In this document: positions 4,217-62,440 of the stretch, in pieces
Numbering within the stretch: the first letter of the stretch is position 1
Layout: every line of letters starts with the position of its first letter
Notes under the pieces: model-generated
Databases searched by the model: none
What the model was told of the DNA's origin: nothing
The model's input: only the letters and a program-made list of their open reading frames with translations
Translations under genes and position numbers: made by a program
NCBI GenBank assembly: GCA_000165425.1
Contig: CT867997.1
Coordinates: 620,001 to 682,700, forward strand
DNA length: 62,700 nucleotides
Reading direction: 5' to 3'
Source: Paramecium tetraurelia
Lineage: Eukaryota

Positions 4217-4899
4217 AATTAAAAAAGAGTGATTTCTTTATTTTTATTTAATCCACTCTAACATATCAAATCTCTATAATTATTCCTATAACAATCAAGA
4301 TCTGTCAATAAAATTTATTATTGAACTCTAAACCTGAAATTGTAGCAGTAATTCAATATCAGAAGCCAAAACTGTTTAAGCTTGAGAATCGTAAGCAAAT
4401 GCTTTGTGGAGTGGTATTTTGTAATCACTCCATATTTTATTTGCTATAATAAGAATTTCCAAATCCTAAAATGGAACTCCAACAATAATTTTGTTGAAAT
4501 AGCCCGATTAATTAGATTAATAGAAACACCCTAACAAATATATATTCAATTTTATGAATATTTCATTTTCACTTAGATTCACTATGTCCAAATGTTGCCA
4601 TACAGGATTTTGAATTGAAAATATTAGTATACATTTGAAGATTTAAAAGATATCTTTTATAAATTAACAATAAAAGGAATTAAATTGAATAGATTATTTA
4701 GTTTGTTTTAATTATTTAAGAATGTGTAGTTTACTTAAGTATTTTAAGAGAGTATGTCAATATTGCATCTTCCATAAATTACTCTTTTTATTAATAATAC
4801 AATTTATTTATAATATAATATTATTTATACAAAGCACAGAATTAATAATGCTACAATTAATTTTATTTAGTAATTGAATTACAAATTTACCAATAATAA

Positions 4900-6190
4900 A
4901 TATGAACAAAAATTGATATTAAATTATCTTTACTCTCTCAATTCTTTTTCGAATAGTGAAGAACCTTATACATTTCTAGAACCTATTCCTGAGTTTATAG
5001 CTAAGCAAATAGATAGTTTTTTAAATTTGTTCTTTATAGAAATGAAATGATACTGATTCTATTCGCGTAAATCATTTGCCCCCACCATTCCATTAAGATA
5101 TATTGCTAATTGCAATAATTGCTTATCTTGCTTATTGTCATAATATGGAATAATCGGAACCCCGTTGTCAAGTTAACATAAATAACTAATCGCAGAGTTA
5201 TCAACTAGAAGAGTTCTCGAGATTGGAAGATTCTTGATGATGGATAAATCCTTAACATACTAGCCTTGATCAGTAAAGCAACAATGTTCTCTTGACAACA
5301 CTCGAGAGATGATTCTCTTTGGATCAATATATTCAACAATCTAAATCAAAACAATAGTGTACTCGTTTTGCATATTATCCATGTGAGGCTGTGAATACTA
5401 TGATTTCGAAATTGGGTTCCAGCAATTCCAGCATTACGTGTAAACCAGGTCGAACCGAAACGCCTACTTAAAATGTTTCATCCTAAGAAAGTTTGATGAT
5501 TAGTTTTTTGTCACAAGGCAATTTCATATCTAGCGTGCAATGTACTAAAGTCTCATCCAAATCAAATAGTAAAGTGTACTTTTTAATATCTATATGTTAA
5601 TATTTATAATAACTTTATGGATTATTTTGGATTATAACTGGTTTTGGTTTGTAAATTATCTTAGAATTTACACATTATTTCAAAGCCATGCAACTTGATA
5701 AAAAATGTTCCTTGAAAAGTTTGTTAAAATAGTTCTCTTTACTTTCAAAAGCAGTGACAACATCAGAGATATAATAAATTGAATTGCTCTCTTACATACT
5801 TGTATTTTGAATAATTCTGGGTGAATCTTTCATACAAAACACTTCGCTATTTTATTTTATTATGGGTCTATATATCAATTTTGGAGCTGTTTGCTTTCTG
5901 CTTAACATTCTTTGATTGTCTATGTTTTATTTATCAAAAGTTTCATTGGGTTCTGTTTTATGAATGAAATTTGATTTCATGACTCGAGACATATTTTTAA
6001 GAGTGAGCACTCTACTTGGAGTAATTTAATATATTTTGTCAATCGACATTGAATTCTCCGTTTGATTAGTTCGAAACTTCTTCTATACATCAAATCGTAA
6101 ATTAATTGAATCAGTCCTCTTTGGTTAACGAGCAGTTAACTATGGCTGTAGAAATTTAAGATTTGGCGAACTTTTTTGATATCCTTTCAT
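4900..6190 (-). CDS. FCP1/SCP-type (NIF) HAD phosphatase; 3' end approximate
   Basis: YTLLFDLDETLVHC carries the DxDxT motif; also VRPGL, IVFTAS, KDLS and DNGVPIIPYYDNKQD. Confidence 0.9.
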
Positions 6191-6980
6191 ATTTAATTTA
6201 TTTTATTACATTTATCCTATCATACAAATAGTATATAAAATCAAAGTATATCCTTGCTTCACTGACCCTTGTGAAACACATGGTTCTATAATTGATAGCA
6301 TAACCGATTTAATGCAATTTATATTAAAATTAATTGCAATGATATTAAATTGCATAATTTTAATCCAATTTACTATTCTGTATTAGTTATTTTAGGCTTT
6401 AAACCATTCTCAAATTTTCTAAATCTAAAATATAATTGATTGCTCAATCTAGTATATTGATATCTCTATTAATTTAAAATTATCTAATATTTTCTTGCTT
6501 AGGATTTTTTAGTTAAAGGGGTATGGATGAAATAATAATGGATTCATTTACAAAAAAGGCAATAACTAAAAACCTGATAATACTGGTATGGTATGTACTA
6601 AAGAAATATCTACTTAATCTTGTAAAGTACCTAAAGGAAATTAAGCTAAATTTTAAATATATTTAATCAAGACATGCTTGGAGATTAACCTTAACCTTTA
6701 ATCTCTCCATATCATAATTATTTAATTAAAAACTATATCTTTTAGAGTGTTATAAAACTTGAAAATCATTAAAAAATATAAATAAATTTGGCCTAATAAT
6801 TTACTTTTTGCTCGATTAACTTTTAAGAATATAAGCTATAAAAAAGACTAAAGAAAGTATGGAAGCTAAGGCATTTTGAGGCATTCTTTTAAATTCTCCA
6901 CAGTATCATTCTTTACATATCTAAGAAGGACAGAATATATAGTAAATACTAGATTATACACATTATCATTAAGAGAAATA

Positions 6981-8256
6981 TCAATGATGATGATGGATCT
7001 CTATTTTTCTTACGTTGGCACATTTAGCATCTTAATCCAATTAGAATTCAAAGTCAGCAGTAACTCCAATTTTCAAATTATCATTTTAATATCTATGTTA
7101 AAAGCGAGATCTCTTTTCAGTTGGACTTAGAGATTCATTTTAAAAGTATTCGAACTCTAATGCTTCCTGTGCACTAACTCTTTTATTATGGTCTCCATCT
7201 AGCATTGCTTTTATTAAATGAATGGCTTTAGAAGGAGCATTAGCTTTATCCAAGACTGTGAAATCTATGGAACCATTCCTAATAATATTGTAAAACATAT
7301 TGGATTCTTGTAAATATCGAAATGGATGAATATCTTCTCCCGAATATAATTTATACAGTATTGCTCCACAACTATAGACATCCATTTTGTCACTGTAGAT
7401 CGGAATATCTTGTAAAGCTTCAGGAGCAGTATACATACCATACAAAATAGGCTAAACATTTGTATCATATTATTTCATAGCAAAATTGAAATCTGCTAAT
7501 TTTAGACTGTCTAATTTTCCAGATTACGCAAACATAATATTAGCAGGTTTGATATCCCTATGAATAATGCCTTCATTCTTCAAATAAACCAAAGCCAACA
7601 ACAGAGCCTTGTATTTATATCAAACAATACCTAAATAATAGTTCTGCACTATTAATGTGTTGTAATTAGATTTCTCTCCAATAATTTTGATAGTGTTTAG
7701 CCTCCCATCAGTTCCATTATTATGTAATAGTATTGTTCGCCTTAAAAGTATTCTTTGAACTAAATGATATGGTTATGTTCTAAGTTCTGATGCATTCTGA
7801 TTTCTTACTAAAAATCATCTTTTCTTTCTAAACACTTTAATGCCCAGAATGACTTTTAAATAGTGTCTTCAACCTTAAACACTTTGCTGTCTGCTCCTTC
7901 TCCAATTTAACGATTGCATTTATATAAGCTCACAATCCCATCAAACAGGACCTTGCAGGCTATTAATCTTCTCATTTCCTCAAGATCTTTATGATTTGCT
8001 TTGAAGAACTTCACCTTCTTCTTAACTACTATTCCAAAAGCATGTATTTTTTGTTACTCTGTATACCAGTACACCTTGTTTTCGAAATTGAGTAGGCAAA
8101 CATACTTCAAACTTTATGATTTAAACTTTCCTTGTAAGCATTAAGATATACCTTGTTAATACTAATTTAATCTGAAAGGATATTCACTGTATAATAGGAA
8201 TTCATAAAATAATGGATACGCTCGCAAGTAAACGAATAAATCACTGGTAATATCAT
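6981..8256 (-). CDS. Ser/Thr protein kinase (CAMK-like) with atypical DFN motif
   Basis: GEGADSKVFKV, FWALKC, IIHRDIKPANIMF, LADFNFA, YTAPE, DVYSCG and RVSAQEAL. The frame continues past the TAA at 7140 to TGA at 6981. Confidence 0.9.
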
Positions 8257-8382
8257 GGTTCTGGAAGATTATATATATATATATATTATTTCTTATTTAT
8301 TGTATAAAAAATCAACAGTATAAAAAGAAGAAATTAAAAAAGGCTTTTAAATTATGATGCTGCAATTCAAAATTGTGATAAA

Positions 8383-8731
8383 TCAATCGTTATTAAGCAA
8401 TAAGTTTCTTCCGTATTTTTTTAAAGCATAAACTACATCCATTGCTTAAACCGTATTTCTTTAGGCATGTTCCGTGTATATGATAGCATCTTTGACCAAG
8501 GATGATAAGAAATTAACTATGACATCTCTATTGGGATCAAATAACACTATACCTAGTCGTAGGGTAAGAATCTGAAGAAATTCTTTTAACACCTCCTCTT
8601 CGAGCAAGTCTACGTATATCACCATTGGTAATGTGCTATCCACCCTTTTTTTCCTTATTCATTTTGTTCTTATGTCTTTTTGCACCTGCTAATTTACCTT
8701 ATCCCATTCGTTTGCCCTTTTGGTTGTCCAT
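8383..8731 (-). CDS. divergent histone H4 variant (107 aa)
   Basis: [107 protein letters not shown]; one 25-nt intron at 8528-8552. Confidence 0.92.
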
Positions 8732-9354
8732 CCTTATTAGATTAATTTAAATTTAAATAAAAATAAGCGCTAATAATTTTCATAATTATAAGTTTTTATA
8801 TTCATTTTTTATAATAGTAATAAATCATCAAATCAAATACCTCAACATAAACTCAATTCAACATCTTTAATAAACATCTAATGATGAACTCCTTTAAATT
8901 CGATAAACCACAGTTCAATAAAGACAGAATTCCAACTCTCTAACCGAGTATATAAAATATAAGTTATTCCCTCCCACTCAGTAAATGATTTACAATCTTT
9001 GTGGTTTTATATCAGAATTCGAATTTAAGCTTTTACATTTTGTAATAAATGTGTATCAATAAAAAAGACAAATATATATCTTAATTTCAAAAATTAGTAT
9101 TTCAGATATAAACATATAAAATATTCAATTTTTAAATAAAATGGTAACTTGTTGTTATCCTTGACTGTTTGATAGATACACAAATATTAGAATGATTTCC
9201 TAGATAGATTAGAAATATTCTATTAATTTAAGAATATGAATATGTGTATATTCCTTCCTCAAAAATACTTTTAAATTCTAATATTCATTTTTAACAGTCT
9301 CTTAAACTTCTCCTATCTTATTATTTTATAAACATGAAAATACGAATTATAAAA

Positions 9355-54479: not shown

Positions 54480-57400
54480 ATGCAATAATGTAAATGTATT
54501 TCATGATGATTAGATGATGGAATTGATGAAATTATTTAATTAAATTCATAGACCTAGGAAAAAATTTAAAATTAGAGTGAGGCTGAAAATTTTTCAAAAA
54601 TAAAAGATGGGCTTGATGAATTTTTAGAACTTGTTTGTGATAATATATTATAAAATGAGGAAGAAATAAATGATTATCTGAATGATAATATACTTATAAA
54701 TTTGAATGCCTAAGATAAAAGGAAGGCAATATAATATTTGTTTGGTTTTAAGTAGGGTAATACCAAACTCGACTTTTTAAATAACATCTTGGATTAAAAT
54801 TGCGAAGAACAATTTAATAAATCACCTGAATTAAATGAAAATTAATATTATTTAGATGCTCGTAAAAATAAAGAATACAGTAATATATTAAATAAACTTA
54901 CTAATGACAAATTCATCTTAGTCAATAAGATTCCATCTTAGATAGCCTCTAGTAAGGACTTTCTTGAGAGAATATTAAATACTCAACTCTAAAAAGTACA
55001 TCTACTATTTGATTATAATGAATATTAGTAAGGATTAAAATAACTAACTTAAATTGAACTTATAAACATTCTTTCATAATTTATCGATGATACTGATGAA
55101 AAGTTACAATAAATTATTGGATCTATTTCCATACGTTAATGCTCTTAATTTTAGACCTATAATGATTGGATCTAAGAATAAGAATAAAATCTATTTACAA
55201 CTTAATAAAATTAGAAATTCTTAAATGAACTTCTTTGTTTAGATCTAATTAAAATATAGAAAGACTTAATTACATTCATATCATAATAAATTGGAAAACT
55301 TAATCATAGTGATCTAAATAAAAAAAAAAATTAATAATAAGGGGTATTAAGAATTTTTTAAGAAACCCTAAAGATGTAAATTTGTTGTAATTTGTCACTA
55401 GATTAAATATATTTTGCAATAACTTTTTATTTTTGGATAAAGCATCATAATAAGATTGTTAAATTTCATTAAGAAATCTCAAAACCATTAGGATAAGTTA
55501 CAGATAAAAAAAAGGAAAATGTTCTTCAAACGAAATTAAAATAGTATAAAAAAGAAAATAAAGAATAAGATTCCATTCATAATTTCTTGATGGATAAAAT
55601 CATTTTTTACAAATCTGATCAATAATAATTTTTAAAGCCAAATTAACAAGAAAGAAATTCAAATGATTATTAAGTCTAAAATATTTCAAACTACTTTTCA
55701 AAAATATTTAATTAATGCTTTAATATGGATTCGAAAATGGCTGATGGAATGGATTAACAATCCAATTTCATTCAATTTTTGAATCAACTTCAAGAGTTTC
55801 ATTTTTACCAAACTTAGATTTGATGAAAATAATTAAGGCTTAAAGAATTTTATTTTAAATACTTTGGATTAACTCTCAAAAATGATAGTATTTTTGAAAT
55901 TTTAAAATATATTCCTAATTCGGAATCAGAATTAATTATTTTTTTGCATATGCTTTAAGATTTAAATAAGAGAATGGATTATATATTATATTATTTAATA
56001 CTAGATATTTTGGAACTTATCATAATGAAAGATACCACTAAATGTTAGAATGTCAAAATTTTTAGAGATTAATTTGAAGATTTATAATCATTCCTATGTA
56101 TTGAGAATTGTATCAAACTTAAATCTATTATTTTTAAAAATTCTCTATTTAATTTAGATGAATGTACCAATATATTAAAGGAAATTTTTAATGAAGTGTA
56201 TATCAAATTTAAAGAGGGTTCGTCAGAAAAATAAAGGAATTTTTAGTTTTTAGTAACTCTTGGTGGAAAAGATTATGGGAATCAATTTTTGATGTTATTT
56301 CATTGCTTTAAAAATAAGGATATCCAAAACTAAATTATTAATATTGTAATCAGAATTTAATTTTTCAAGAAAAATAGAAATTTAGATATGTTTAAATAAT
56401 GTTGTAATGACCTTTTTATGTTAGATGAGGGAATTTATGATAAATGTTATGAATAATTTAATGATATTACTGAATTTTAAATTACACCTTAATTCTTTCA
56501 ACATAAGAAAATACATGGAAGCTATCCTACTAAAATCAATATATCAATTGAATAATTTATTCTATCTAGAACTGAATAGAAAAAAAACAATTAAATAATA
56601 AAATGGGTATCTAATTTAAATAACTGTGAATATTTTTTGTCTCTTCTTCCTTTTTTATTTGATATTATTAAAAGAGGAGAATCAATTGAGCCTTTGCTTG
56701 ATTAAGTCAATAAAAATACAGGTATCGAAAACATAGAATTTATGAATTTCAAAGTTATCTTTTAAATTTTATATAATAATTCCGATAAATAGCTGCAAAT
56801 CCTACTATTAAAAAACTTATCCTATAATTATCCTATTCCCTTTGTTTATTAAAATCCCAATTTAGATAATATCCAAGTGGAAGCAGATTTATATTTGATT
56901 AATCCTAATATTTATTTCTTATTATAAAAACAATACAGCATTATTAACGTTTCTTTCAGTAAATTGTAAACTTAAATTGGTAAGACTTAATTAATTAATA
57001 GCGTATTTTATCGAAAAGATAAATTTAATATTTAAGATACTAATAATTTAAATAGAAATACTATCGATCTGATGCTGGATAAGGAATTCAATGGATCTAG
57101 AAATTTACTAATTGCTGACGCTCATGGGTATATTCCATAAAGCTTGTTGTTGAAAATTTTGCCATTATTTAGTTTTTGGATAATATAGATGGACACTGAG
57201 GAAGAATTAAAAGAGAATCTTGAATAAATTAAAAACTTAAATAAAAAATTCAAAATAATAAATCATAAGATTCTATTTATTGTTAGAAACTCAAAAAGTA
57301 AATAAATTGACTAATCTCTCCAAGAAGAATTAAACAAAAATTATATCTAACTCTACTAAATTCAAAATTTATCTTCAAAAGGTATAAACAATTAGTTGAT

Positions 57401-60400
57401 TTATTAACAAATTAAGCTTTTGCAGGAATAAATTTTTAATTAGATTGCGAATCATGAGGAATTCAAGCCATTTAATTAAGAAAATTTTATTTAGATCTTA
57501 AGAACTGAGGACCAAGAAGAATTATAAAAGTTAAATATTTTATTATAAGAAATCAAAGATGAAGCAGAAATATATTTTAATGATACAAAAGGATTTTACA
57601 ACTCAAAAGCATTTCCTTTAAGATATTTTGATAAAATTATAAAAGAATTGCAGGAAGAGGAATCACAACTTTTTGAAGTCTCACAATTTTGTTTAACATA
57701 GGAAATACATCAACTTTAGTAAAAAATTCAAAATTATTAAAATTTTTTAAAATAACAAAATCCAAGTAAGCTATTAAAATTATTTAAATAATTAATTTGT
57801 TTTGAAAATTATAGTTCATACATTACTTTAATCTAAGTTATCTCTGATTTGACTAGAGAATCTACTTAAAAATTATAGATAATAAATTCTGATTTATTAG
57901 ATAAACTTCAAGTTTAAAAATTAGAAAATAGAGAAGATAAAGAAGGGCTAAAAAAATTAAAATAATATTTTGAAGAATGTGAAAAAGAACTTTAATCTAA
58001 AAGTCTTAATATTGATATATTTTGGAGAGAACATATCAAGCATTGTTTTTAAATAAATTAATGCCAAGAAGTCGCAGATTAAATAGTAAAATTATTAATG
58101 AAAGGTGAAGCATTTGAACTTTTAGATGGAGAATAATTAATAATGAATATTGGTTTTTTTGAACTTATAGTAAAATGTTTTGAAAAAATAAGTAAAAATA
58201 ATAAAATTCTTGTTATTGGAATTTTGGGACCTTAAAGCTCAGGCAAATCTACGATCTTAAACAAGATTTTTGGATGCCATTTTTTCTCGAGCGTAGGAAA
58301 ATCAACTAAAGGGATATACTTTCAAATGATATAAGTTCAGAAAAATTCAATATTTGAAAATTAGTTTGATTTTATTTTAATATTAGATACAGAAGGATTA
58401 TAGAGTCCAAATTAAAAAGATCCACTATTCGATAAAAGGATTTCCCTATTTATATTTGCTATCTGTGATATTATTTTAATTAATGTGAAGGGTGAGATTA
58501 ATTCTTAATTTAAAAATCTTGTTGAAATATGTATTTATTCTTTGGCTTAAATTTAAAATGCATTATCAAATACAAAATAAATTAGTTGGTGTTTTAACCA
58601 AAATATTGATACTTCAAATAAATCGCCATTTATTGAACAATTAACTTAATTAACAAAATAATTATTCGATGATAACGGGTAATTTGGAAAAAATAAAGAT
58701 AAATAATAGGATATCTTAGAATTAATAGAAATTAAAAAGGAAAATATCCAAATTTTAAGTACTACAACAACAATGGAAACCTGGAATATCGAAGGATTAC
58801 AATAATTTTGGACATAACTTATTCCAAATGAATCATATTCTAAAGATGCTTACAAATATGGTATATAATTGATACACAATTATTTTGAAAAGTGCCAAAA
58901 AAAATAGTAAAGTTTTTGTGGATAACTACTAGAAAATTTTTTTTTAAATTCATATAAAATGTGGGAAACTATTTCAAAATTACCAGATCTATTGGAATTT
59001 TCAGAATTGATTTCATTATAATAAAACTAACTAATTTCAAAATTTTATTATCAACTTTGGAATGAAAATAAATTAACATTCAAATCTTAAATATCAACCC
59101 TAATAAAACAGAAAATCGAATAGCTTAATTTTGATTTAAATTTCAAGCATTTATAAGAAATTTAATAGGAATTAGAATTAAAGTTATCGATAGAATGCAA
59201 AATAATAAATAAAAAGATTGAAGAAAAGCTAAATTAATTCAAAGAGGAAAAAAACATTTAAAAAAACATATATTAAAAATTTATAATTAAATTATAAAAT
59301 GAAATTCATAACCTTTAAACAGAATGTAATTTTTTTATAAATGAGTAAATTAAAAATTAAGAAATCGAATATTAAATACGTCGAGGTTTTGGTGAAATTA
59401 ATAAGTACATCAATTAATTAAGTCCAGAAATTAGAACCTAATTACAAAATGATGAAACATTATTGTAAAATTAATTCAATATCATTTGGGAAAAAATAAA
59501 AATTTAATAATTATAGTAAAGAAAAGTCAAATTTGATGAAATTTAAACTGCATCTCTTAAATAAATCAAAAGCTATTTTTAGGAATATTAGTTAACTTTT
59601 CACAAAGATAGTAACTTTTAAAGTTTTTTTCATGAAAAAATAAATAAAATTGATCAGAAAGAAGAAGAAAAAGACAAAATTTTTTTGTAATACTAAGAAA
59701 TACTAATGCAAAATTAATTTACAAAATTGCCAAAAGAGGACTTCTATCATATAAATTTTGAAATACTGGGCTTTGATTAAAAAATTGAAAAGTCTTAAGG
59801 CTCGTTCTTATCTTTAGATAAACTATTTTAAGTAAATTATAATATAAATTATGTACTTAATAGAGAACTAAAACAATATTTTTAAAATTATTTTTAAGAA
59901 GATCTTTAAAAAGCTAAAAAGCTTGAAAAGATTTAGGATTTATTGCAAATCCTTGACTTATTTTAAGTGGGGTATGATTAAATTAGCAAAAATAAAATCC
60001 TTTAATTATTTAACAAAGACTAAAAAGAATATTAAAATTCTTGTTCCTAATTTACATAAACATTTAAGTTTAATGATTTAGATCGATAACGTAAATTTTA
60101 AAAATTGGATCTAAATTTATTAGAAAAATTGAAAAAATCAAAATTAAAATTTTATTAAAGAAAAATCTAGGATACAGAAATAAATGATTTCAGAAAAGAA
60201 AATATAATTATATCGTAAGCATGTGATAATGTAGTAAGTAAAGAATTTAGCAGCAAATATTGCGTTTATATTAGCAATCCTCAAAAATACCGTTTTGCTG
60301 AGTCTTTTCAAGTAGAGTTTAATTAAATGGTTAATAAAAATCGAATATGGAATAAAATTTATTCTGAGATATATGATAAAATAAAAACCTCAATATTGGA

Positions 60401-62440
60401 ATTAGCAGAGAATACAGAAATTATCTCAAAAGACATAATTCAAGGAGTGATGCAATAAATATGCGATTTTAGTGAAAATCGTTACAAACCGTAATTTTCT
60501 TTATATGGCCTTTAATTATCTGATATGGGATAAAGATGCATCTATTATTACAGTTTGCACATAATTTGGAGATTTTATTGTTTAAAGATTTGGAAAAAGT
60601 TTGAAGAAAATTAAAAGTTAGTTGAGAATAGCAAGAATGATTAATGGGAATCTTTCAAACTTGAGATACATTAGCATAAATTTAAATTAAGCATGTAAAA
60701 AGGTAAATTGCTTGCTAATTATTTGATTGAAAAGTCTCAATAGATTTTTTATTTAGATAAGAGAATTGAAATTGAAGATTTTCTTAAGAGAGAGCTAAAA
60801 AAAAATGAAAATTTAGTAAAGTACTTGGATGATAAAATAATTACAAAAAGGTAAAAAATTGAACTATTAAATGAGATGACAGATTAGGAATAAGTTATGG
60901 AATATCTGACAAATTAATTGAACTTTATTTAATCATATGTAGAAAAATATATAAAGCATATAACAAAATAAATTTAATTACAATACTAAGAATCATTTAA
61001 TCAAGAATTAAGAATTATTTTTCACAGAGTAGAGACAAATGCTAAAAAATTATTAAAAAGCCTTCCCTATTATCCAAGTGTTGAAAACTATTTTGAGAAT
61101 TCTATTAAATCTAAATTCTATAAAATTAAAGATGAAGATTAAAAGAAAAAACAAGAAAACATTCTTGAAATCAAATTATTTAATTTAGTTTTTCAGTACC
61201 TTTTGGAATATGAATAAAAATAGGAAGAAATCGAAGAAATTGATGATTAATACAAAGATTGCTTTATTCATAACTATAAGCGAAAATAAAATATATTAAT
61301 AAACTAGAGGAATGAAATGGATAACTAAATAAATCAAATTCAACCATTTTTATAATCCTTACTTGATAACCTATAATTAGTCAGTTCAATTAACTTTGAC
61401 CTAACTTAACTGCTCATTTAAGAAAGCTTGAACTCATTAAAATTGGCTATGATTGGATGTACTCATTGTTGTCCAATGTGTAATCGTAAATGTGATTCCG
61501 AACCTGAATTTCTCCCTCATTCATGTTAAAATGGTCATTACTTAAGAGGTATTTCTTTATTAAATCTCAGGGATGAATGGTATACTGTTAGGAAATAAGC
61601 CATAATTACAGAGTTGCGAAGAAATAAAAGATGATTAAATCATTGATATCCTTGAAACTAAAAAGCAGATGAAATGGAAAGAAATTAAGAAAATATATCA
61701 AAAATGGAATTTTGCAAGCGTAAGTGTAAATACAAAAATACTTAAGGAAAATAAATTGAAATTGATCAAAATTTGGAATGATGGAATTGGAAACTTAATA
61801 TGCACAAAATTAAGTTAAACATTTAATACCAAAATTTATTATAATACAAGGGAACAATAGGAAATCTTCTATCTTTTTATACTTGATGACTCCTTTTCAA
61901 TGGAAGGAAAAAAAGGAGATGAAATGATGGAAAGCTTAAGATAATAACTCAAATTTCTGAAATCAAATAAATATGCTAAAGTGAGTGTAATTTCATTCAA
62001 TTATAAAGCCTCATTGTAAATAGAATTTAAAAAGCCAAAAGCAAAATTGATTAAATAAATTACGTTAGTAGGAGGAATTACAAATTTTGACCCACCTCTC
62101 AAATTATGTTTAGATTAAATACTAAAATATGAAAAAAAAATTGATTAGTAAAAATTTATATAAACCTAGAGCATATATCCTCCTTTATTCTGATGGGGAA
62201 GGTTCATATCCTCAATAGAGTTTAGCTGAATATATAACATTAAGTTAAGAATTAAGAAATAAAATATCATTTCTGATTTGTACAGCTGGGAGTAAACCTC
62301 AAACTCTACTTAAAATGATTTAGCAATTAACACTTGCATTTCACAAGGTAGAATTGAAGAAAAACATTTAAAGCTCAGATCTGAGTAAATGTTGGAATGA
62401 AATATTAATTAAAACTTGCTAGATGACCACAACTGAATGA
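54480..62440 (+). CDS. very large GTPase (VLIG/GVIN/URGCP-type G domain) with C-terminal vWA domain, about 2600 aa
   Basis: GEAFELLDGE, IGILGPQSSGKSTILN, SVGKSTKG, LDTEGLQS, FDKRISLF, GCTHCCPMCNRKC and the vWA motifs FILDDSFSM/GGITNF/YSDGEG. One frame is kept from 54516 to 61548 apart from TGA-TGA at 55821-55826. Confidence 0.85.

Follow-up and report, generated by a model that had tools for sequence, protein, structure and literature searches.

A strongly diverged, expressed histone H4 gene of Paramecium tetraurelia and its candidacy as a genus-specific nucleosomal variant

Histone H4 is the most conserved of the core histones, and true variants of it are rare. Ciliate H4s are reportedly unusually diverse, a description attributed to Katz et al. 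in 2004. PMC10878826 lists as true H4 variants the trypanosome H4V, a testis H4 of Oikopleura, human H4G, a bracovirus H4, and fungal H4E. Human H4G is hominid-specific, 85% identical to H4, devoid of the C-terminal tail, and nucleolar (PMC10878826; PMC6895281). PMC10878826 also gives T. brucei H4V as approximately 80% identical to its canonical H4 and as a mark of Pol II termination sites, and describes fungal H4E as carrying longer N- and C-terminal extensions, as often lacking K16, and as being of unknown function. A further trypanosomatid variant, T. cruzi H4.V, and a plant variant, Oryza H4.V, figure in PMC13052989 and PMC7617672, respectively. For P. tetraurelia itself, PMC4122937 counts five distinct H4 proteins without describing them.

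The gene considered here lies on the minus strand at 8383-8731 of a 62,700-nt stretch of the P. tetraurelia genome (assembly GCA_000165425.1, contig CT867997.1, positions 620,001 to 682,700; hereafter the window) and encodes an H4-like protein, H4v. The initial annotation had called the gene a strongly diverged H4 variant, had proposed phylogeny, dN/dS, and an expression time course through autogamy among the ways to check it, and had named two outcomes that would speak against it: no expression together with dN/dS near 1, or identity with the bulk H4 of the species. A search with the first exon led to a Paramecium cluster of 107-aa proteins, and the spliced product of the window is identical, letter for letter, to one of them, P. 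tetraurelia GSPATT00005004001 (P0122; UniProt A0BJB4, named "Histone H4"); the gene is therefore already annotated. Its identity to canonical Paramecium H4 (P0562) is 55% in our alignment (A1) and 57% by BLASTP. At 55-57% identity, the possibility that the gene is the bulk H4 of the species was rejected; it encodes an H4 paralog, and the description as a strongly diverged variant holds. Searches of full-text literature and of the gene identifiers found no paper characterizing a Paramecium H4 variant, and no relevant passage on one was found in PMC8997361 and PMC7402521. The gene adds an uncharacterized entry to the few lineage-specific variants of H4, and databases list it under a generic name.

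H4v shares features with human H4G, the trypanosomatid H4.V proteins, fungal H4E, and Oryza H4.V while differing from all of them. Like human H4G, it is a lineage-restricted paralog that departs from H4 mainly at the H2A-contacting C-terminal tail; however, H4G as described lacks this tail, whereas in H4v it is of equal length and of a different, conserved sequence. H4G is also described as young (hominids) and as having a nucleolar role connected with rDNA, while H4v is common to deeply separated Paramecium species. The trypanosomatid H4.V proteins resemble H4v as variants of a single protist lineage that are encoded apart from the bulk H4 genes, though H4v (~55% identical to its canonical counterpart) is far more diverged than either T. 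brucei H4V (~80%) or human H4G (85%). Fungal H4E and Oryza H4.V are likewise clade-wide paralogs with their own intron/exon structure, a conserved fold, and divergent ends; unlike the extended H4E, H4v keeps K16-R17-H18 and shows a tail-for-tail replacement. There is no phylogenetic link between H4v and the known H4 variants; the Paramecium proteins form a clade of their own. H4v is a distinct paralog, conserved within a clade and expressed, as is expected of a lineage-specific variant. We favor, with some confidence, the reading that it is the product of a functional macronuclear gene for a nucleosomal H4 variant specific to the genus Paramecium, and it is probably a specialized chromatin protein.

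Under the ciliate nuclear code, the gene consists of two exons and a 25-nt intron and encodes a protein of 107 aa. Exon 1 (8553..8731, minus strand; start codon 8731-8729) runs from codon 1 through codon 59 and two bases into codon 60, and so encodes the N-terminal tail, helix alpha1, and loop L1; exon 2 (8383..8527, minus strand) supplies the third base of codon 60 followed by codons 61-107, which encode alpha2, L2, alpha3, and the remodeled C-terminus, and closes with a TGA stop at 8385-8383. The intron (8528..8552, minus strand; GTATAG...AATAG) is placed both by sequence and by a gap in an RNA contig. Its removal by script yields a CDS of 324 nt, while its retention would shift the frame and lead to a TGA after four codons. 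Four in-frame TAA/TAG codons are decoded as glutamine (Q11, Q32, Q82, and Q87). The initial annotation had reported an intact 107-aa ORF; the protein and all of the motifs quoted from it, including the GRNLLLNND C-terminus, are indeed present in the spliced product, but the frame is intact only with the ciliate code and after removal of the intron. In the unspliced sequence, an ORF of 64 aa (8537..8731) and another of 80 aa (8383..8625) are seen instead. The tiny intron, the use of TGA as sole stop, and the G+C content of the window (21-34%) all fit Paramecium.

Expression was assessed from the raw reads of two poly(A) RNA-seq runs of the same study (X22 and X23), which cover exactly 8340-8760. 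In X22, 1669 reads aligned out of 19.16 million read (87 per million; depth up to 548), and in X23, 338 out of 22.43 million (15 per million; depth up to 95), a 5.8-fold difference in reads per million between runs for which conditions are not given, and at most a hint of specialized use. First mates fall almost entirely on the plus strand in both runs (e.g., 548 versus 2.2), which in a stranded library of the usual kind indicates RNA from the minus strand. In X22, depth is 128-335 over exon 1 and reaches 548 over exon 2, while the bin containing the intron has a depth of 27, as compared with 451 and 128 in the flanking bins; loose read ends at 8553 continue into the end of exon 2, and those at 8530 continue into exon 1. 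A transcript contig of 398 nt (X19) spans 8334-8756 and omits exactly 25 nt at 8528, with 0 other differences from the window. Its span marks an approximate transcription unit (8334..8756, minus strand), in which the 5' UTR is very short and the 3' UTR measures ~20-50 nt; fragment ends of the raw reads pile up at 8360/8362 and at 8729/8733/8747. The gene is transcribed from the minus strand, spliced at the 25-nt intron, and polyadenylated. A separate contig of 440 nt (X17; 8302-8733), from a run only guessed to be RNA, keeps the intron and may represent either DNA or an intron-retaining transcript.

Published expression resources were searched as well. Nothing on this gene was found in the supplements of PMC3091696 and PMC5485702 or among the 4,086 expression-table rows in the supplements of PMC10711438, and the supplements searched from PMC9670198 gave nothing useful on it. 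No proteomic or localization data on the protein were found in the resources searched. File 5 of PMC6586856, in which the gene may or may not figure under a PTET identifier, contains 15 genes with core histone domains and one NF-Y-type histone-like gene; it assigns one gene with the synonym histone_H4, PTET.51.1.G0030305, to "Early repression".

The RNA reads also bear on selection. Of the 1669 X22 reads, 719 are only 90-95% alike to the window, and the share of reads that derive from the window copy is accordingly uncertain, since many aligned reads derive from its ohnolog. The off-type reads differ from the window consistently at 23 sites with a spacing of threes, and we infer that they are transcripts of that ohnolog, P0125 (GSPATT00003336001). 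Two of these differences fall within the 3' UTR; the remaining 21, all coding, are synonymous without exception (20 at third positions and one TTA/CTA leucine), and the loose-end consensus at 8404-8418 adds five further third-position differences, all synonymous by hand translation. Every one of the 26 coding differences seen in the ohnolog transcripts is thus synonymous, and the annotated proteins P0122 and P0125 differ at two amino acids over 99 aligned residues. Omega, calculated over 69.7 synonymous and 251.3 nonsynonymous sites, comes to ~0.015-0.02, in a count that covers only the cross-mapping parts of the ohnolog and assumes that the reads come from the P0125 gene; under neutrality, the probability that at least 26 of 28 changes would be synonymous is ~1e-15. 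Gene conversion between the ohnologs cannot explain this pattern, as their synonymous sites have diverged. The sequences indicate that the gene is under strong purifying selection and has been kept as an ohnolog pair differing almost only synonymously; the dN/dS comparison, run here between ohnologs, falls far from the value near 1 expected of a decaying copy.

The annotated start of the protein differs between the two copies. The ohnolog P0125 is annotated as a 99-aa protein beginning at a methionine that matches M9 of the window protein (window 8707-8731), while reads with ohnolog letters stay aligned past the upstream ATG at 8731 and depart from the window in the 5' UTR alone, where loose ends begin at 8731. 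The annotation of 99 aa may on this account be too short. Conversely, some transcripts may start at M9, given the many fragment ends at 8729-8733.

These results leave little room for a pseudogene, that is, for a decaying H4 duplicate derived from the whole-genome duplications. An identity of only 55-57% to canonical H4 and the loss of several hallmark H4 residues would be natural in a copy of this kind; however, precise splicing of the intron leaves an unbroken frame, poly(A) RNA from the correct strand is abundant (depth up to 548), the ohnologs differ by 26 synonymous and 2 nonsynonymous changes, and P. bursaria is one of at least five named Paramecium species that have an ortholog. We consider decay a highly improbable explanation. 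Of the two outcomes named at the start as speaking against the variant, neither was observed.

The relationship of the protein to H4 is supported by both sequence and predicted structure. A phmmer search of the PDB gave a best E-value of 4.5e-25 and 89 sequences at E <= 1e-10, and all 60 of the matches listed are named histone H4; a chance ORF was rejected on this likeness, which is far beyond chance. A HMMER scan of 1.84 billion representatives returned 4845 matches at E <= 0.001, and every match read among the best 150 of these, as well as in the named lists of other searches, is H4-like; the Atlas neighbors of the variant are H4 clusters throughout. In the AF2 model, helices span residues 36-45, 55-80, and 88-97, with mean pLDDT of ~91-95 over the blocks of the fold, while the tail is disordered and residues 103-107 fall below a pLDDT of 50. 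All 50 Foldseek matches listed for this model are chains of nucleosome entries, at 51-62% identity. The variant is predicted on this basis to adopt a canonical histone fold of H4 length. Pfam returns only sub-threshold or marginal matches for the variant, spread across Histone, CENP-T_C, CBFD_NFYB_HMF, and CENP-S, but its matches to canonical Paramecium H4 are equally marginal (CENP-T_C, TAF, and CENP-S), and it therefore does not discriminate between the two. The best sequence match in the PDB is chain B of 3azl, a nucleosome with an engineered human H4 K77Q, which ranks first because the variant has glutamine at position 77; H4v thus naturally carries a residue that mimics acetyl-lysine at this DNA-facing position, together with an asparagine at K79.

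Motif and phylogenetic analysis indicates that H4v belongs to a family that is probably confined to Paramecium. Of the 584 proteins fetched, only eight, which define the variant family, combine the motifs T(N/S)GDIRR, TVQA, N(L/I)LLN, and K(K/R)YG. The 90% cluster that includes the window protein comprises six proteins, from P. tetraurelia (2), P. primaurelia, P. octaurelia, and P. sonneborni (2), that are 93-99% identical to it; a 100-aa protein (P0273) shares 81% identity with it, and P0134, from P. bursaria, 63%. The latter is the most identical match, and the best-scoring single-copy one, in the scan of 1.84 billion representatives. A scan of metagenome contigs with P0122 found five loci, the best 59% identical, all canonical-type H4s, and no ortholog.

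In a tree of 52 sequences (27 selected, the other 25 a random draw from 183 candidates), the eight variants group into a single clade (support 99/97) with a stem length of 1.06 changes per site, and canonical Paramecium H4 groups apart from them with Tetrahymena and Ichthyophthirius. The phylogenetic check proposed in the initial annotation thus places the variants together and separate from the canonical H4 of their own genus. Tip lengths are at most 0.05 in the aurelia species, 0.16 for P0273, and 1.16 for P. bursaria. This pattern is one of an early burst of change and of tight constraint thereafter, in the aurelia lineage at any rate; given the long branch of the P. bursaria member, constraint has not been uniform across the genus. 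Canonical Paramecium H4 (P0562; A0BIZ4, GSPATT00004884001) is a single sequence listed for 17 Paramecium taxa and 36 contigs, and bulk H4 is therefore under extreme constraint in the genus.

Two environmental H4-like proteins (P0141 and P0329, on ENA contigs of 607 and 542 bp) adjoin the variant clade in the tree. Their separation from the 42 canonical rows is supported at 93/86, and the branches involved are long. They have in common with the variant a K-G-D before IRR, a YP.TRD motif, and the loss of K59 and K79, and their C-terminus is still of the YG type. The variant type may predate Paramecium, or the placement may reflect long-branch attraction, and we treat it as a lead only.

The roles of individual H4 residues are established from nucleosome structure. 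In canonical H4, alpha1 and L1 bind DNA, and the residues that H4v retains serve this contact, the packing onto H3, and the four-helix bundle shared with H2B; L2 is a DNA-contact and LRS surface; and the C-terminal strand pairs with the docking domain of H2A in the octamer and with Asf1 before deposition. When 110 canonical-type H4s were compared with the eight variants, the fold aligned without indels (variant I39-D107 with canonical I34-G102). H4v has the same fold length and the same alpha1/L1 segment as canonical Paramecium H4 and the Tetrahymena H4 (P0374), and shares with both of them YTEHA, R78-T80-V81, D85, K91, G94, GxGK, and A-K-R-H. The DNA-contact residues of alpha1/L1 are kept (R35, R36, R39, R40, K44, R45, I46, and S47); within this 14-residue segment, the arginines, lysine, and glycines are invariant in all eight variants, and the final serine is present in seven, with alanine in P. 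bursaria. Y51, R55, F61, L62, D68, Y72, T73, E74, H75, and A76, along with R78, T80, V81, D85, Y88, L90, K91, G94, and R95, are kept in all or nearly all variants; among them, Y72, E74, H75, D85, Y88, and K91 are the H2B-facing residues of alpha2 and alpha3.

The N-terminal tail was described in the initial annotation as remodeled, which is true of its length and part of its sequence but overstates the change as a whole. It is 3-5 residues longer and more lysine-rich than that of canonical Paramecium H4, and the region between the basic patch and alpha1 is three residues longer and rewritten. However, the G-x-G-K site (G10, G12, and K13) and K18-R19 are invariant among the variants, H20 is present in seven of eight, and the A-K-R-H patch of canonical H4 is retained, with spacing that differs by one residue.

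Replacements are found elsewhere in the fold and at the C-terminus. All eight variants depart from canonical H4s at nine fold positions where conservation among the latter is at least 90% (G28, K31, P32, A33, L58, T71, K79, T82, and Q93), and the C-terminal Y-G-F-G, conserved to the same degree, is absent from every one of them. Relative to canonical Paramecium H4, H4v has lost K59, E63, T71, K77, K79, T82, and Q93, and TLYGFGA has become NLLLNND. By region, K31-P32-A33 at the start of alpha1 is replaced with N/S-G-D; in alpha2, K59 is replaced with V/L and E63 with S/Q/T/N; and in L2, where R78, T80, and V81 are kept, K77 is replaced with Q/D, K79 (95% conserved among the 110 canonical-type H4s) with N/T, and T82 (also 95% conserved) with Q in all eight. 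In the C-terminal strand, T96-L-Y98-G-F100-G-G reads N-L-L-L-N-N-D in the window protein; across the family, G94, R95, and L97 are kept, T96 is replaced with N, and Y-G-F-G-G with a conserved L-L-N-(N/T)-D. The replacements to which the initial annotation had drawn attention (TKPA to TNGD, the L2 loop, and the C-terminal strand) are therefore real and conserved across the variant family. Replacement residues are themselves invariant in all eight variants at G37, D38, I63, Q87, Y98, N101, L103, L104, and N105 (variant numbering), which argues for new constraint rather than for relaxation or drift.

This last observation weighs against the possibility that H4v is a redundant H4 isoform supplying bulk macronuclear chromatin, its substitutions being tolerated drift that was fixed early. 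Such an isoform would be consistent with the expression of both ohnologs at good levels in ordinary poly(A) RNA, with the retention of all alpha1/L1 DNA contacts and H2B-facing residues, and with a background of diverse ciliate H4s and of five H4 proteins in P. tetraurelia, as counted in PMC4122937. Yet bulk H4 is extremely constrained in the genus while a 55%-identical second type has been kept beside it, the replaced positions are invariant within the variant family, and the long stem (1.06) is followed by very short aurelia branches. We regard redundancy as an unlikely account of the gene.

The same set of losses can be read in another direction. Losing the near-invariant K79, T82, K31, and Y98/F100 strand could equally mean that the protein has left the nucleosome and become a neofunctionalized histone-fold protein, whether a subunit resembling TAFs, CENP-T/W/S/X, or NF-Y, or a decoy or adaptor of chaperones or enzymes. 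The loss of the strand for H2A docking and Asf1, the loss of K79 and T82 from L2/LRS, and the marginal Pfam matches across Histone, CENP-T_C, CBFD_NFYB_HMF, and CENP-S are all compatible with this. Canonical Paramecium H4 gives a similar marginal Pfam pattern, however, so that the pattern is uninformative, and every best match in sequence and in fold is a nucleosomal H4; moreover, a protein working outside the nucleosome would not need to hold its DNA-contact arginines, GxGK site, and AKRH patch invariant. A non-nucleosomal role thus appears quite improbable.

We therefore return to H4v as a nucleosomal variant. Judging by the residues retained, it would still pair with an H3 and sit in a nucleosome-like particle, and its GxGK site and KRH patch suggest that it may pass through the usual steps of deposition acetylation and tail-dependent remodeling. 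It would differ from bulk H4 at partner surfaces, namely the start of alpha1, L2/LRS, alpha2, and the C-terminal strand, and it is because the changed residues lie at these surfaces that we read it as a variant with an altered interface to H2A-H2B and chaperones. With two L2 lysines removed, its nucleosome would be expected to make fewer phosphate contacts at this loop, and its interface with H2A-H2B and with chaperones may be either weakened or re-specified. The consequence could be a more labile particle, or a preference for particular H2A, H3, or chaperone paralogs. The initial annotation had suggested a specialized variant giving altered or unstable nucleosomes, perhaps specific to one nucleus or acting in genome rearrangement; selection, expression, and the conserved substitutions support the idea of specialization, and the roles named with it would be candidates only.

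A more specific proposal is that H4v is the H4 subunit of a nucleosome type found only in Paramecium, which marks one class of chromatin, either that of the micronuclei or that of the developing macronucleus. The rewired strand for H2A and Asf1, together with the neutralized L2, would in that case favor pairing with particular H2A and H3 variants and chaperone paralogs. Tens of thousands of IESs are excised in the developing Paramecium macronucleus, and labile or specially remodeled nucleosomes might let the excision machinery reach the DNA there. We hold this proposal only tentatively and think it unlikely in its full form.

The genomic setting of the H4v gene is unexceptional. Its neighbors, all ordinary macronuclear genes, include a protein kinase (~6984-7975, minus strand), a NIF/CTD-like phosphatase (4582-6409, minus strand), an RRM protein, and a kinesin. 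The kinase and the phosphatase are each split into two neighboring ORFs, as would be expected if they too had tiny introns, and are without a functional link to the histone gene. No second histone gene was found among the 49 long ORFs scanned in the window. Farther along, a 1935-aa ORF (55827-61631, plus strand) contains a URGCP-like or RHD3-type GTPase domain (Pfam E = 6e-33), with long stretches of low-complexity sequence resembling coiled coils on either side.

H4v offers a natural experiment on the histone that otherwise varies least, being ~55% identical to the canonical H4 of its own species, yet with omega of at most 0.02 and a genus-wide distribution. It separates surfaces of H4 that could be rebuilt (the L2 loop, the start of alpha1, and the strand for H2A and Asf1) from those that could not (the alpha1/L1 arginines, the H2B interface, the GxGK site, and the KRH patch). 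The gene is small and has two ohnologs, and as the organism is amenable to RNAi and GFP tagging, its role can be tested directly; interest in it would rise sharply if localization or timing proved to be specific to a nucleus or to development. Paramecium has two kinds of nucleus, very short linkers, and massive programmed DNA elimination. In an organism with these properties, a dedicated H4 could help to tell germline, somatic, and developing chromatin apart.
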